Below, piece by piece: positions 11,480-34,626 of a stretch of DNA of 64,000 nt. The stretch lies in the IMG/VR virus record IMGVR_UViG_3300025529_000271, one strand, 5' to 3'. How positions within the stretch are numbered: position 1 is the stretch's first letter; every line of letters starts with the position of its first letter. The notes beneath the pieces are model-generated. The model did no database searches and had not been told where the DNA came from. It saw only the letters and a list, made by a program, of their open reading frames with translations. The position numbers were made by a program, and so were the translations under genes. This DNA is from an uncultured virus (IMG/VR IMGVR_UViG_3300025529_000271). Taxonomy: Duplodnaviria > Heunggongvirae > Uroviricota > Caudoviricetes.

Positions 11480-11568
11480 GTTTATTTTTGACTTAATTTG
11501 CATTTTTACAGAAATAAACCAACTGGCTTGATACCACTGTAACTTCTTAAAAATTAGAGGTGGTATCT

Positions 11569-14208
11569 TTGCCGAGTACTAGGTTTATTAACGAGATTCG
11601 TTCGGCGGATTCGGAGAAACGTGTTGAGGCGATTTATCACGAAGCCCTTCGCAAAGGAATCAGCGATCTCGGCGGGCACGTTCAAAGCATCAAAACTCTT
11701 TACAATACGGATGGTATTTTGGATGGCGAGTTTTTGTTCGATGGCGCACCTCGCGTCTTTCGCATTATCATTGAGACCAAAATGGACGAATCGTTTACCA
11801 ATGCAGTCGTTCGTTCGAAAGTGTTGGCGCAGGTTGTCTACTATCTGAAGCGCTTTGAAGATGCCGGGGATGAACTTCCGAACATCATCTTTGTTGGTGA
11901 TCGTAACGAGTGTTTTGTTGTGCATATCAACTATCTGCAAAATTACCTCAATTTCAACTGTGATTGGTCTATCGCTCCGAGTCTTGCGGGTTCTCGAAGT
12001 GTGGAATTGGTCGAAGCACTTACATCGGATGAAGTCCTTCAATCCAACTGTTTCGTTCACATCATTGACGATAATTTTGACTTTGAGGATGTTGTGAAGG
12101 ATATCTGGCGGTTGGTCACGGGTGTAAAGACGAAATCTCGCATCACCGAGCGGAATATCTCTAAGATTTTCGAGCGTTTTTCTATGCACATCTTGAAACG
12201 CAAGTCTTCGGGGGAATCACTTTATACTCCACGTGAGCAAGTTGAGTATTTCATGAAGCTCGTACTTCATCAAGACGACTGTTATTTGCATCCTCGCAAA
12301 AAGGGTCGTGCCGTTATAGATGGGGTAGAGGTGCAAGTCAACTCGGATGCTTTTTCGTCCTTTACCAATTACTATGAGTTTAACTATAACGCCCTTGAGA
12401 AGAAAGAGTTCACGGCTATCGCTGACCGACTGATCGAGGATTCTGATCGTCGGCGTAAAGGCGATTTCTACACACCTACGGTTTGGGTAGATGAAGCGAA
12501 CAAGATCCTTTCTCAACATCTTGGGGCGAATTGGAAGGATGAGTACGTGGTTTGGGACTGCGCGTGGGGTACGGGAAACCTCACTCGCGATTATAATTTT
12601 TCGGATCTGTATTGTTCGACTTTGCATGACCATGATCTTGAGATCGGTAAAAAGTATAATCTTAACGCCCAAGCCAAGTTTCAATACGATTTTCTCAATG
12701 ACGATGTTGAGTTGTTTGAGGAGCTTCGGCAAAAAGTTGCTAAAGGGTATAATCTTACCGAGAGGGACTTTTATGGTTCCAAGCTGTGGCAGAAAGCTCC
12801 TAGCTTGATCAGGGGTATGCTTGAGGGTAAGAAGTTGTTGTTCTTCATTAATCCACCGTATGGGACAAGCGGGGAAATGTCTTCCGCGATTACGGGCAAA
12901 GAGAAGAAAGTGGGTATCGCCGCAACCAAACTTGCTGAGTTCATGCGTCGAGACAACATGGGTGCGGCGACGCAACAGCTTTATGCACAGTTCATTTACC
13001 GTATTTACACCCTTAAACTCTTGTTTGGGGTATCGGTGACGCTTGGACTTTTTAGTCCACCTCTTTTTATGACGGGCAACTCGTTCCGGCTTTTCCGGGA
13101 TAATTTGATTTCTAAGTTGACTTTGATCGACGGTATGGTTTTTCAGGCTTCTGAGTTCGCGGACGTTTCTTCCAACTGGGGTATTTCGTTTACTTTATGG
13201 ACGGATGAGGAACCTACCAGTAGCACTGGGGTTTATGTGCTTCCAGTGAAAGAGGGTCGTGTAGGACAGCCCGTAACTGTAGGCACTAAGCGATTTTATA
13301 GCGTGGATAATGAGACGTCCGCTACTCTTTGGTGTAAGGAGCTTTTGGTTGGGCTTCGGACGTTCGATGCTCCGCAGTTGAAAAATGCCATCAATGTGAA
13401 GGAAAAGGGTGTCGGACGTCTGTGTGAAGGTGCTATGGGGTATATCTTTACTGCCGCTTCGAATAAGGTTGAGCATAACAACTCTTATGTCTGCATTGTC
13501 AGCAGTGCTTTTGCAAATGCACATGGCTGGCAAATCGTCGAAGGGAATTTCATGCGGAACATGGCGTATTTTACCGCTCGAAGACTGATAACGGGGAATT
13601 ATGCGGCTTGGGTTAATTCTAAGGATGAGTACCTCAAGCCGAATACTTCGCATCCACTGTATTCTCAGTGGGTAGCGGACGCCATTGTGTATGCATTGTT
13701 CAATTCTGCGTCTAATCAATCTTCGTTGCGCGGTATTGAATATAAGGATGCTTCTCATGACATTTATAACCATTTCTTCTTCATGTCTCGGGATGACCTG
13801 CGTCAGCTTGCTCTTGGGGGTAACCCGAATGATGAGGTCTATCATGATCTTGAAGTACATGGTCAAACTGAGCGTTTTGTCTATGAGAAGCTCCAGCAGG
13901 TCAACCTCTCGCCCGACGCCCATGCGGTTTTGAATATGGCGCGTCAACTTGTTTGTGACTCCTTTAAGTACCGCAAGTTGTTCCATCAGGAACACCCCGA
14001 GTATCATATCACTGCGTGGGACGCGGGTTGGTATCAAATTAAGGGGATGTTGCGGAAGTATATGCCGGAGCAGTTGAGGGAGTTCAACGCGCTCTATAAA
14101 ACCTTTGAAGACCGTATGCGTCCGTTTGTTGTTGAACTTGGTTTTCTGTACGACTATCCGGGTTATGAGGAAGACCTTCAAAAGCATCCCATTCCTAGCG
14201 TTAATTAA
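11569..14208 (+). CDS. type IIG-like restriction-modification enzyme (nuclease + N6-adenine methyltransferase + TRD)
   Basis: N-terminal DG...IIIETK nuclease-like motif; GDFYTP, motif I VWDCAWGTGNL, motif IV FINPPY. Confidence 0.85.
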   Translation: MPSTRFINEIRSADSEKRVEAIYHEALRKGISDLGGHVQSIKTLYNTDGILDGEFLFDGAPRVFRIIIETKMDESFTNAVVRSKVLAQVVYYLKRFEDAGDELPNIIFVGDRNECFVVHINYLQNYLNFNCDWSIAPSLAGSRSVELVEALTSDEVLQSNCFVHIIDDNFDFEDVVKDIWRLVTGVKTKSRITERNISKIFERFSMHILKRKSSGESLYTPREQVEYFMKLVLHQDDCYLHPRKKGRAVIDGVEVQVNSDAFSSFTNYYEFNYNALEKKEFTAIADRLIEDSDRRRKGDFYTPTVWVDEANKILSQHLGANWKDEYVVWDCAWGTGNLTRDYNFSDLYCSTLHDHDLEIGKKYNLNAQAKFQYDFLNDDVELFEELRQKVAKGYNLTERDFYGSKLWQKAPSLIRGMLEGKKLLFFINPPYGTSGEMSSAITGKEKKVGIAATKLAEFMRRDNMGAATQQLYAQFIYRIYTLKLLFGVSVTLGLFSPPLFMTGNSFRLFRDNLISKLTLIDGMVFQASEFADVSSNWGISFTLWTDEEPTSSTGVYVLPVKEGRVGQPVTVGTKRFYSVDNETSATLWCKELLVGLRTFDAPQLKNAINVKEKGVGRLCEGAMGYIFTAASNKVEHNNSYVCIVSSAFANAHGWQIVEGNFMRNMAYFTARRLITGNYAAWVNSKDEYLKPNTSHPLYSQWVADAIVYALFNSASNQSSLRGIEYKDASHDIYNHFFFMSRDDLRQLALGGNPNDEVYHDLEVHGQTERFVYEKLQQVNLSPDAHAVLNMARQLVCDSFKYRKLFHQEHPEYHITAWDAGWYQIKGMLRKYMPEQLREFNALYKTFEDRMRPFVVELGFLYDYPGYEEDLQKHPIPSVN

Positions 14209-15481: not shown

Positions 15482-15518
15482 TTCAGGAGATTCTGGTAAA
15501 TTTCTTTTGACTTCTTTG

Positions 15519-15547
15519 TTGACGCTTTTTGACTAGAGGTGTAAGAT
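15519..15547 (+). promoter_or_regulatory. sigmaA-type promoter for the structured RNA
   Basis: TTGACG-17 bp-TAAGAT. Confidence 0.7.
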
Positions 15548-15552
15548 AGATA

Positions 15553-15865
15553 GCGAAAGGTGGTTGTGGTAGTCCTTTCAAAACCTCATCCGACTTGGCT
15601 GAACGCTTGGGAGGGCAAGTAAGTGTGTAACGCAGTGGCGTTGAAAAATGGGGAGACTCTGGGATTGTACTCGTGAGGTGATCCCGATAAGCCCTGTTCC
15701 TCTCGCGGAAGAGGGGTACGCCATCCTCCTTCGGTTACACTCGGGTGGGGTTTTGAAAGGACTACTCGCCCCTTTCGGATCTCTCCTTCGCTTGTCTCGT
15801 TTAGTCCAATCTCCTTTTCTCTGTTTGACCGGGTACTCGTATCGCCCGGCGTTTTTTTTTTTTTT
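15553..15865 (+). ncRNA. putative ~310-nt structured non-coding RNA of unknown family
   Basis: promoter upstream; 25-bp stem 15569-15593/15741-15765 with two G-U pairs, nested helices; CCGGG/CCCGG terminator with T14. Confidence 0.7.
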
Positions 15866-15901
15866 GACTTTTGACTTTTGGATAAGTATACGGATATATT
15901 A

Positions 15902-15930
15902 TTGACGTTATTGAACTAGTTTTGTAGTAT
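15902..15930 (+). promoter_or_regulatory. sigmaA-type promoter for small RNA
   Basis: TTGACG-17 bp-TAGTAT. Confidence 0.7.
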
Positions 15931-15935
15931 AAAAA

Positions 15936-15997
15936 CTGGTATTCCTCCTTTACTTGACCGGGTAGATCGGTAGTCAGTCTACCCGGTACTTTTTTTT
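15936..15997 (+). ncRNA. putative ~60-nt small RNA with anti-SD seed
   Basis: promoter, single-stranded TTCCTCCTTT, 10-bp terminator stem ACCGGGTAGA/TCTACCCGGT plus T8. Confidence 0.6.
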
Positions 15998-16101
15998 ATA
16001 CTTCAAACCTTCATTTCTTTTAGGATACTTGCTTGTTTTCTTGGGACTGATTTTTTATACTAAGTACCAGCTTGGAAGATCTCTCAAGGAGGACTAGGAT
16101 C

Positions 16102-24322: not shown

Positions 24323-24465
24323 TTTCCTTGCGGTTCCTTCACCGCCCTTTTCTCCTATATTCGCCCGTGTTCAAATTAGGACTTATCGCAAATCAACTTG
24401 ATTGGCAGATAAGTTCAAGTGTATAAGGGCTTAAAAATAGAGAGAAATAGGGCGGTGAATCATCT

Positions 24466-25536
24466 ATGCTTCGCATCATAGCCACTTTTCGTCCTCTCGG
24501 TTCCAAGCAGATCGTGGGGTACCGTTTGTTAGTCGAGGACAAAGCTACCTTAGCCAAGCTTCACGCCAGCGGCTATCACTTCAGGGGTAATGTTGGCGAC
24601 TTTTCGCCGCAGGAGACCTTTTTCTTGCTGGTCAACTTTGGTTCGATCAATGCCAGCGTCACCAATAATCAAATCACCTTGCTGGACGGTTCGATGGACT
24701 CGCTCCCGATTCTCAATCCGCAGACTGGACAATGCACGGACAATAACAATATTATCGTCCTTGCGGCGATTACCTATAATGATGAGGTCATCGGTTATCG
24801 GGTTTGCAACTACACGGGAGCTATCGCGCAACTGCGCTATAACGACTTGCTGACTAAAGCCAAGCAAGGTTTCGCGAACGCCAAGATTGTTCATCGCGAC
24901 GGGAAAGCCTTCATCTCCGCGATCAGGGGTACTTTCCCGACGACTCCGCTTCGCACCAAGGATGACCATATGCCCCGCGCTGTGATACCGACGGGTTCCA
25001 ATTATCAAACCCTTGTCGATACCACAAAACAGCGTGGAAACGTTAGCATCCCGGTGAAGTATTATGCTGACCCATCTCGCATGCAGACCGATCCGCCCAC
25101 CAGCACAGGGCATGTGGCACTTACCGATAAGGGTGAAGTGGTCTATCGGTATCGAAACGAGCATGGTGACCCGAAGTTTGCGGTTGTTCCTAAGAACGTT
25201 TTTAATACCAACTTCCAGTTGGGGGTAGCGTCGAGCGTCACTAAGCAGGAACTTGCCAACACCCCTCCCGCTCCGGCACCCACGCGAACCAACACCAAAT
25301 ACCTGCGCGAGGTCACGGAGAAGTATGGGATTGGTACCACCCTTAATGTTTTGTTCTTTCAAGGCACGACCAAACTTGCCGGACAGGTGCGCTTGAATCG
25401 CGGGGTAATCCATTTGCGGTATCGCCCAGATCCGAATGCGGATTTCAAGGTTGTGCAAGTCTCGGAGGCGGACTTCGATAAACACTTCCGTATTCAGGGG
25501 GTAATTCAGCCTAAGCCGCAACCGAAGTCATCTTGA
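24466..25536 (+). CDS. hypothetical protein with two N-terminal DUF3892-like repeats
   Basis: duplicated IIA...IVGYRL and VLAAI...VIGYRV...NAKIV...FISAI pattern. Confidence 0.6.
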   Translation: MLRIIATFRPLGSKQIVGYRLLVEDKATLAKLHASGYHFRGNVGDFSPQETFFLLVNFGSINASVTNNQITLLDGSMDSLPILNPQTGQCTDNNNIIVLAAITYNDEVIGYRVCNYTGAIAQLRYNDLLTKAKQGFANAKIVHRDGKAFISAIRGTFPTTPLRTKDDHMPRAVIPTGSNYQTLVDTTKQRGNVSIPVKYYADPSRMQTDPPTSTGHVALTDKGEVVYRYRNEHGDPKFAVVPKNVFNTNFQLGVASSVTKQELANTPPAPAPTRTNTKYLREVTEKYGIGTTLNVLFFQGTTKLAGQVRLNRGVIHLRYRPDPNADFKVVQVSEADFDKHFRIQGVIQPKPQPKSS

Positions 25537-33292: not shown

Positions 33293-33707
33293 GCGATCTT
33301 TAAGCGTACCTTGATTGAATTACAATTTCTTCCTTATCGACTTGATATGATATTTATGACTTATACTTGCTTGGAACGAGTTCTCCCCTTGCACCTTGGT
33401 AGGAAACCATCCTTTTTCTTCTGAAACATTTTTGCCCTTACTTTGAAACATTCCTGTCGATCTGTTTAATCCCTTTTAACCCCGCCTTTTCCGCTCGTAT
33501 AGGCGGGGTACTTAGCGGTGGTTGCGCTCTTATGCGTTGCCCTATATGTCTGCTCTGTGGCGCGTACAGCTTGTTTAGCGGCGGTGTGACGAGTGGTGCG
33601 GTTTGGGGTACTCGCAACCTTTGTGCATGGGGGTACGGACGGTAGCGGTATGAAACATGGTGTGTTACAAAAGCGGAGCATCTTGAAAAATATTTTTTAG
33701 AAATGAG

Positions 33708-33736
33708 TTGACTTCTGTATTGAGCCAAGTTATTAT
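33708..33736 (+). promoter_or_regulatory. sigmaA-type promoter of core protein B1
   Basis: TTGACT-17 bp-TATTAT. Confidence 0.7.
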
Positions 33737-33852
33737 TGTAACTGTCAGGGGGTACTACTCCTACCCCGCAGGGACTTATCTCCCGGCGGCAGGGTCGGGG
33801 TCGCAACTCCCAAAATCGAAATCATCAATTCCAATGAGGGAGGAAAAAAGTC

Positions 33853-34626
33853 ATGGCAATCCAACGTTCTGCTGTGGATCAAAACGTGGCTGGCGCTCCG
33901 GCTCCTGCCGCTACCAAGGGAGGTAAGGAAAAGGTGCGGGCTTCCGAGAAGATCGCGGATCAAGGTCGCGCACTGGTCGCTTCGATGTCCGAAGCTGAAA
34001 TCGAAGCACTCGGCTCCAAGTCGCACACCCTGATCTTCCTCGAATGCCTTGGCATGGGAAGCAAGCGCTCCAGCCGTCGCGTGGCTGAAGACCAAAACGT
34101 CGACTGCGCGACTCCGGTTGCGGCACGTTTCCGCACCACGGAAGACATCATGGTTCCGCAAATCCCGATCACGAAAGACCGCTTCACGGGTATCAATCCG
34201 GAAACCGACATCACGTGGGTACCGAAGAAGGCGGGCGAGGAATTCATCCTCTCCTACTACGAAATCATGTACCTGCTGATCAAGGACGAATACGGCGGAT
34301 ACTGCTCGGACGGCGAAAATCCGAAGGGCGTTCGCTTCACGCCGCGTCTGAATGCCTACGTTGCGAACCAAGCTCTCCTGCCGACGCCGACGCTGACGCT
34401 GGAGAAGGGCGCTATCAAGGCTTCCATCACCAACATCGACGAAGAAGTCGAACCGGGCAAGTGGGTCTGCAAGCCGGAGTACGAAGAGAAGTTCGGTGAC
34501 CTGTTCAAGAAGAAGGCTCCGCGCCGCGCTTCCGCCGAACCGAAGGGCAAGAAGATCTCCAGCACGACCTACATCGCCAAAGCCCTCAACCACATCCTGT
34601 ACGCGGGCAACAAGGCAAACGCCTAA
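33853..34626 (+). CDS. uncharacterised, probably highly expressed core protein B1; paralog of 39628-40443
   Basis: GAGGGAGG RBS, own promoter and terminator, extreme C/G-ending codon bias. Confidence 0.9.
   Translation: MAIQRSAVDQNVAGAPAPAATKGGKEKVRASEKIADQGRALVASMSEAEIEALGSKSHTLIFLECLGMGSKRSSRRVAEDQNVDCATPVAARFRTTEDIMVPQIPITKDRFTGINPETDITWVPKKAGEEFILSYYEIMYLLIKDEYGGYCSDGENPKGVRFTPRLNAYVANQALLPTPTLTLEKGAIKASITNIDEEVEPGKWVCKPEYEEKFGDLFKKKAPRRASAEPKGKKISSTTYIAKALNHILYAGNKANA

Follow-up and report, generated by a model that had tools for sequence, protein, structure and literature searches.

Genomic setting of RNA1

The window, by which we mean the whole 64,000-nt stretch of DNA analysed here (from an uncultured Caudoviricetes virus, IMG/VR record IMGVR_UViG_3300025529_000271), contains a 620-nt gap between the genes for a 380-aa and a 213-aa protein, and it is in this gap that the candidate RNA unit referred to below as RNA1 sits. 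Neither of the two flanking proteins found anything in Pfam, PHROGs, PADLOC, the PDB sequence search or Atlas, and for the 380-aa protein a search of 5.8 billion proteins gave just two relatives, one of them 49% identical and encoded on an 11-kb contig. All recognisable genes of the window lie on the + strand. Those assigned through Pfam or PHROGs encode an amidoligase, a DprA-like protein, a nucleotidyltransferase, a GNAT acetyltransferase, a macro domain protein, thymidylate synthase, NrdI, NrdE, NrdF and a clamp loader, and most of the remaining proteins have no family. NrdE is at most 52.7% identical to any GenBank phage NrdE, the 573-aa and 1857-aa proteins have no relative in IMG/VR or in 50,697 GenBank phage records, and no capsid or terminase gene was identified in the window. 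We infer that the window belongs to a very divergent jumbo-phage-like element with a Gram-positive-type host.

Upstream of the 380-aa gene, positions 11560-14208 encode an 882-aa protein without a Pfam family. It shows an invariant NPP (N431-P433), after which Y434 and G435 are nearly invariant, together with a WDxAxGTGNLT motif; we take these to be hallmarks of an N6-adenine methyltransferase. Its relatives number more than 2,800 and include proteins on Clostridium chromosomes and on many large viral contigs; among them are some at 58-62% identity, one of which lies on a 152-kb contig.

Several features elsewhere in the window were recorded alongside. From base composition, ~22 copies of the hexamer GGGGTA would be expected, but the + strand has 170 and the - strand 10; the word is spread evenly (8-16 per 4 kb), falls in every codon frame and in gaps too, and has one copy inside RNA1 (15713). 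Its extension GGGGTAC has 46 copies when both strands are counted, where shuffles have 4.8 +/- 1.9. By these counts GGGGTA is a strongly polar, over-represented word, which may be Chi-like or otherwise orienting. Four copies of GGGGTAC lie in a second long gap (33293-33852, 560 nt) that holds a GC-rich island (58.7% over 150 nt, ~33503) and a promoter, TTGACT-17-TATTAT, at 33708, with a GC-rich leader between this promoter and the gene at 33853; positions 33440-33700 fold no better than their shuffles (z -0.31). A 24-nt inverted repeat (24338-24361 / 24436-24459, 79% complementary, 74 nt apart) has its second arm ending 7 nt ahead of the ATG at 24466 and could sequester the start region of that gene. 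Finally, a 65-aa open reading frame (1366-1563) has both a strong ribosome-binding site (AAAGGAG) and a terminator hairpin of its own (~1580-1612); it is probably an unannotated small gene within what had been taken for a 634-nt gap.

Anatomy of the probable transcription unit

The features of RNA1 all lie on the + strand. Two direct repeats of the box CTTTTGACTT bracket the unit, one upstream of the promoter (15504-15513) and an exact copy just past the terminal T-run (15868-15877). The promoter is sigma-70-like, TTGACG-17-TAAGAT at 15519-15547, with 9 of 12 matches, and from its position transcription would be expected to start near 15552-15554. An outer 7-bp helix begins 1-2 bases past this predicted start: its 5' arm, CGAAAGG at 15554-15560, pairs with CCTTTCG at 15771-15777, as seen both by string match and in the minimum-energy fold, so that the 5' end of the RNA would be buried in the stalk. 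Inside this helix, the two arms of a 25-bp stalk (15569-15593 and 15741-15765, the latter carrying both G of the U.G pairs described below) enclose a core of 147 nt (15594-15740), whose topology is ambiguous by folding. Beyond the outer helix comes a pyrimidine-rich linker of ~50 nt with CUCCUU motifs (15778-15828), which is predicted to be single-stranded, being unpaired in the minimum-energy and centroid folds alike. The unit ends with an intrinsic terminator (15829-15865), recognised from sequence and fold, in which a CCGGG-N11-CCCGG hairpin (15829-15849; 6 bp, -9.8 kcal/mol by folding) precedes a T14 run at 15852-15865. Our terminator scan omitted this hairpin, whose loop of 11 nt exceeds the scan maximum of 8.

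A sequence-only reading of the window had proposed a structured RNA here with its own promoter and T14 terminator, and all the strings that it quoted for RNA1 were found in the sequence at the coordinates given. The two signals are present on the + strand, in the form of the promoter and the hairpin just described; the transcription that had been read from them we put forward as probable only. Such signals are uncommon in the window. Its + strand holds nine TTGAC-N17-19-TAnn[AT]T sites, eight of them in or beside intergenic gaps, and only three T-runs of 7 or more (6437, 15852 and 15990). Of these, three promoter-like sites and two T-runs fall in the one 620-nt gap, and because transcription signals are rare in the window, their clustering at the RNA1 gap is meaningful. 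As far as sequence signals go, RNA1 has what characterises a base-pairing sRNA gene, namely a short non-coding unit with its own promoter and an intrinsic terminator. We consider it somewhat likely that RNA1 is an independent non-coding transcript.

Folding of the stalk and the core

The stalk is far beyond chance. Its arms are 92% complementary and form 25 consecutive pairs with, as had been noted from the sequence, only two deviations, both of them U.G pairs on the + strand. When inverted repeats with arms of 16 nt or more, within 400 nt of each other, were ranked over the entire window, the stalk came first of nine, and the 17-nt core of its inverted repeat is unique in the window. The entire RNA1 transcript folds at -124 kcal/mol (z -3.49; 0 of 100 shuffles equal), and the - strand of the unit gives z -2.69, with 1 of 100 shuffles equal. 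Stalk and core together have 54% GC, compared with an intergenic mean of 41% and 34-35% in the adjacent flanks. The sequence-only reading took the two wobble pairs as a sign of selection at the RNA level; both would fall on the + strand with a chance of about 1 in 4, as we reason, if the deviations arose by transitions. RNase III requires a substrate duplex that runs unbroken for 20 bp or more (about two turns), and the 25 consecutive pairs of the stalk, including the two U.G pairs, are of this size. Cleavage by RNase III could release a core of ~150 nt, as had been suggested.

The picture is different for the core, which had been described as a structured, multi-helix domain. On its own, the 147-nt core does not fold beyond its shuffles (z -1.05, with 33 of 200 folding equally well; z -0.60 on the - strand), and two models of it compete. 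The nested helices of the earlier proposal all exist as strings, but the minimum-energy fold has UGGCUGA/UCGGUUA and GGGAGG/CCUCCU in place of ACTTG/CAAGT and GTGTAAC/GTTACAC, and constraining the fold to every helix of the proposal gives -99.7 kcal/mol, compared with -110.1 kcal/mol when unconstrained. Common to both models are the outer helix, the stalk, GUGGCGU/ACGCCAU and a CCUCUC-loop-GAGGGG hairpin. Features of the predicted fold are a loop on one side only and a forked tip. In the proposed model an internal loop exposes CCUCCUU, whereas in the minimum-energy fold, ~10 kcal/mol more stable, CCUCCU (15724-15729) is paired with the Shine-Dalgarno-like GGGAGG (15609-15614), so that the exposure of CCUCCUU depends on the model chosen.

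Comparison with the two contigs that carry RNA1

RNA1 was compared in two contigs. L004, a metagenome contig of 273,468 bp, contains the window and differs from it only in the length of the T-run, which is T12. The only close relative is L005, a contig of 228,941 bp that is 95.1% identical over 591 nt. In L005 both promoter hexamers are unchanged and the T-run is shorter; the 5' arm of the stalk is invariant in L004 and L005, and the structure is retained in two separate assemblies. Between 15553 and 15778, L005 differs from the window by five substitutions and one 2-nt deletion, all of them in the core. At 15616, C>U is unpaired in the minimum-energy fold and turns G-C into G.U in the model of the sequence-only reading; at 15624, U>C turns U.G into C-G in a small hairpin of the minimum-energy fold; at 15659, C>U turns G-C into G.U; at 15667, G>U lies in a loop; and at 15714, G>A turns U.G into U-A in a consensus hairpin, the loop of which is reduced from 6 to 4 nt by the deletion of 15709-15710. 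Two of the five substitutions therefore turn a U.G into a Watson-Crick pair.

None of the five L005 substitutions makes the fold less stable, and the set as a whole raises the predicted stability from -110.1 kcal/mol in the window to -112.1 kcal/mol. When substitutions of the same spectrum were drawn at random, the sets gave a mean of -102.6 kcal/mol when placed anywhere, with 2 of 200 matching the observed value (2 of 300 in an earlier run of the test), and a mean of -106.4 kcal/mol when confined to the core, with 3 of 200 matching. On the - strand the same test gave 3/200 (anywhere) and 9/200 (core). With five changes only, the L005 substitutions argue for a constraint on pairing that favours no particular strand; as the - strand does nearly as well, the test does not separate constraint at the RNA level from constraint at the DNA level. 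Divergence from L005 within RNA1 is 5/224, or 2.2%, and that of the flanking genes is 1.0-2.6%, with third codon positions alike. Since RNA1 diverges at the background rate of the genes, the comparison with L005 shows no purifying selection. As for covariation, which the sequence-only reading had named as a check, the homologues that could be collected amount to two distinct sequences, in which no base pair is altered on both sides, and thus they contain no compensatory change.

Known families, coding potential and other candidates

Searching the whole window on both strands with the 4227 models of Rfam 15 yielded no match at the gathering score. Within RNA1, the highest-scoring match at E values up to 10 had 19.1 bits, against a gathering score of 80, and ARAGORN found no tRNA or tmRNA gene in the window. 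In this respect the earlier judgement by eye, that RNA1 could not be matched to tRNA, tmRNA, SRP, RNase P or 5S RNA, held good.

The RNA1 region is very probably non-coding. Two open reading frames cover it, one of 85 aa on the + strand and one of 48 aa on the - strand, and coding on either strand was rejected on the ground that the 2-nt deletion at 15709-15710 in L005 shifts both frames. A 17-codon frame that begins with GUG after GGGAGG was also set aside, its start codon being gone in L005 (15624 U>C). Other candidates fared no better. A riboswitch or attenuator was dismissed because no aptamer family matches and the terminator hairpin forms alone, with the preceding 50 nt unpaired. For 6S RNA there is no RF00013 match, and the predicted fold has no two-sided central bubble. 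A replication origin or terminus does not fit the cumulative GC skew, which climbs through the site without a turn.

A second unit downstream of RNA1

The same gap holds a second unit, RNA2 (15902-15997, + strand), identified by the scans and by folding. It lies ~130 bp downstream of RNA1. Its promoter is TTGACG-17-TAGTAT at 15902-15930, and its predicted transcript of ~60 nt carries UAUUCCUCCUUU and ends with an 11-bp terminator hairpin and a T8 run; the fold of RNA2 has a z score of -2.86. RNA1 and RNA2 have in common the box CTTTTGACTT before the promoter, the 11-mer TTGACCGGGTA, which forms the 5' arm of the terminator in each, and an end made of CCCGG and a T-run. When the two units were aligned, the score of the terminator part was reached by 2 of 500 shuffles and that of the promoter part by 18 of 500. 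RNA1 looks like an RNA2-type unit with an extra, hairpin-closed domain of 225 nt placed between the start and the C/U-rich arm.

Against Rfam, RNA2 gave sub-threshold matches to ncr982 (22.1 bits, with a gathering score of 50), ncr1241 (19.4/60) and rli22 (19.4/80). The gene that follows (ATG 16102) has AAGGAGGACTA (16086-16096) as its ribosome-binding site, and we observed that TATTCCTCCTT in RNA2 is complementary to this site. A read-through fold of RNA2 does pair TATTCCTCCTT with AAGGAGGACTA, yet its z score is -1.31 and 17 of 200 shuffles fold as well.

Searches for further homologues

Searches for RNA1 beyond the two contigs were made at the level of nucleotides, proteins and structure. 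In blastn against 50,697 phage records RNA1 had no match, and none was found in IMG/VR for the flanking proteins. Patterns based on 17-mers of the stalk and the core retrieved three loci from IMG/VR, each sharing the 17-mer alone. Among 185,579 species genomes, the sole locus with the two-arm pattern (L084, 3001-3177) was a 177-nt palindromic element on a contig of a Patescibacteria MAG that shares 12-nt arm words with the stalk; it is an unrelated palindrome without a match to the covariance model described next, and we treated the likeness to the stalk arms as chance.

A covariance model, R1, was built from the two RNA1 sequences and run on 80 metagenome loci and 50 IMG/VR loci that had been collected via relatives of the methyltransferase. 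In the 683,616 bases of metagenome loci it found only L004, which is the window's own contig, and L005; in the 784,231 bases of IMG/VR loci it found no further RNA1 homologue. Across both sets, all other matches scored at most 10.4 bits, with E values of 2.3 or more. When 30 proteins of the window were compared with the 129 other loci by tblastn, one weak match was returned, so these loci are not syntenic with the window. RNA1 is an orphan, known from two contigs that are nearly identical. That it might be a new class of non-coding RNA accordingly stays a suggestion, its sole homologues in the DNA searched being the window's own contig and one relative at 95% identity.

Discussion

The reading that we tentatively prefer, with confidence somewhat below even, is that RNA1 is an early, independent non-coding RNA with a C/U-rich arm that would pair in trans and a stalk that would be protective, cut by RNase III, or both. 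RNA1 would on this account be an independent unit of a large phage-like genome, expressed as a ~310-nt RNA from a sigma-70-like promoter of the host type, and composite in build. Its 5' 225 nt would form a rod-like, hairpin-closed domain made up of the 7-bp helix, the 25-bp stalk and the GC-rich core, and its 3' 90 nt an sRNA-like module consisting of a 50-nt unpaired C/U-rich stretch with CUCCUU followed by the terminator. The C/U-rich arm may pair in trans with purine-rich, Shine-Dalgarno-like sites on phage or host mRNAs, and the stalk may stabilise the 5' end, serve as an entry site for RNase III that separates the two modules, or do both. The pairing step was confronted with duplex energies computed against the 59 translation-initiation regions of the window, in which shuffled seeds equalled or beat the tail of RNA1 in 18 of 20 cases, the RNA2 seed in 12 of 20 and the CCUCC segment in 6 of 20. 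Because shuffled seeds pair equally well, target prediction in the window lends the trans-pairing step no support.

The surroundings of RNA1 would suit an RNA that acts in cis. The genes from 16102 to ~20793 are tightly packed on the same strand, the next TTGAC-type promoter does not come before 21014, and the only host-type promoters feeding this block (15519, 15871 and 15902) are each followed by a terminator. The two promoter-RNA-terminator units might accordingly form a leader that gates the block by antitermination, the stalked domain being an antitermination element or a protein-binding site, and two terminators in series would fit a processive mechanism. We nevertheless think this unlikely: RNA1 matches none of the known families of antitermination RNAs or riboswitches, the neighbours include no recognisable regulator, whether Q-like, N-like or other, 50 nt separate the end of the stalk from the terminator, the stalk, with 25 + 7 bp, would seem too stable for a switch, and a phage polymerase may read the block from promoters that our searches do not recognise. 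If instead the core were what matters, RNA1 could belong to a new class of structured, protein-binding or decoy RNAs, with a functional core released by RNase III cleavage of the stalk. An unbroken duplex of 25 bp is physically sufficient for RNase III, the element is a GC-rich island in an AT-rich spacer, Rfam has no match to it, and the core-confined substitutions preserve folding (3/200); the folding energy of the core itself, however, is ordinary (z -1.05) and its topology ambiguous, neither covariation nor a second member turned up in 683,616 + 784,231 bases, and no RNA-binding partner is recognisable nearby, and we regard a class of this kind as improbable.

Two further explanations do without a functional RNA domain. 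The only clearly non-random feature of RNA1 is its inverted repeat, the substitution test works on both strands, and without the stalked segment the layout of RNA1 is that of RNA2, with the TTTTGACTT box, the TTGACG promoter, a CU-rich stretch, the TTGACCGGGTA terminator and the T-run. What was added could thus be an inverted-repeat segment of 197-225 bp acting at the DNA level, such as a MITE-like element or a protein-binding palindrome, inserted into an RNA2-type sRNA gene and folding as RNA only as a by-product; its 25-nt arms would be the terminal inverted repeats of a MITE. This we hold to be distinctly improbable, considering that the segment occurs once in the 64-kb window and not at all in the other loci searched, that the bases beside the arms differ, which means that there is no target-site duplication, that no transposase lies nearby, and that an interrupted outer helix starting 1-2 bases past the transcription start suits an RNA better than a transposon end. 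Least probable of all, in our estimation, is that RNA1 has no function and represents an inverted duplication, fortuitous or in decay, within a long spacer. Its presence in only two near-identical genomes and its background level of divergence would be in keeping with this, but a 25-nt inverted repeat broken by wobbles only and framed, at a distance of a few bases, by a promoter and a top-three terminator is unlikely to be a product of chance, and the structure has been kept in two separate assemblies.

RNA1 can be set beside several known types of RNA, the computed comparison being that with Rfam only. The C/U-rich trans-acting sRNAs of Bacillota and their phages and prophages, of the LhrC/rli22 and RoxS/RsaE types, share with RNA1 their own promoter, an unpaired pyrimidine-rich stretch able to pair with Shine-Dalgarno regions and a 3' intrinsic terminator, but lack the 225-nt hairpin-closed 5' domain. 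Hairpins cut by RNase III are found in phage transcripts, as at the T7 early mRNA sites and in the early mRNAs of SP82 and SPO1 in Bacillus subtilis, as well as in pre-rRNA stems. Like RNA1 as we read it, the phage examples have a long, near-perfect duplex in an early region transcribed by the host polymerase, with a Gram-positive-like host; they are, however, simple hairpins in polycistronic mRNAs, whereas the duplex of RNA1 encloses a 147-nt core from its own 5' end. The pRNA of the phi29 family, which is represented in Rfam and belongs to phages of ~20 kb, resembles RNA1 in being a Bacillota phage RNA with its own promoter and a long helix of the 5' and 3' regions that closes a multi-branch centre. 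RNA1 differs from it in having no Rfam match at E values up to 10, in lying on a 273-kb contig and in its 3' tail and terminator.

Among regulatory transcripts, the short lambda pR'-tR' RNA is read through by Q antitermination, and HK022 put and Bacillus EAR are antitermination RNAs. The arrangement is similar to that of RNA1, in that a promoter, a short structured transcript and a strong terminator stand before a co-oriented block of genes; RNA1, in contrast, shows no match to them by sequence or model, no antiterminator was recognised, and there are two successive units, each with a promoter. 6S RNA is of comparable size and has a largely rod-like fold closed by its 5' and 3' regions, but differs from RNA1 by the RF00013 result and the central bubble noted above. 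In the literature on phage-derived sRNAs that we consulted, including passages of a review (PMC12197685), we met nothing resembling RNA1, a statement that extends to that literature and not to everything in print; the words Bacillus, pRNA and jumbo do not appear in the review text, and the examples in those passages come from E. coli phages.

Large uncultivated phages are almost unexplored as regards their non-coding RNAs. It is conceivable, if doubtful, that the 225-nt domain is the founder of a new phage RNA class, in which a rod whose interior pairs the Shine-Dalgarno-like GGGAGG with the anti-Shine-Dalgarno-like CCUCCU has been fused to a pyrimidine-rich arm, giving an early, RNase III-processed decoy or regulator of translation initiation or of a host factor that senses double-stranded RNA. 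At present the value of RNA1 is that of a concrete and cheaply testable candidate and not that of an established class. If RNA1 is transcribed, it would be an early RNA, made by the host polymerase, that joins a long double-stranded stalk with an anti-Shine-Dalgarno-like arm, and it would, if this is true, point to control by the phage, at the RNA level, of translation or of RNA-sensing defences.
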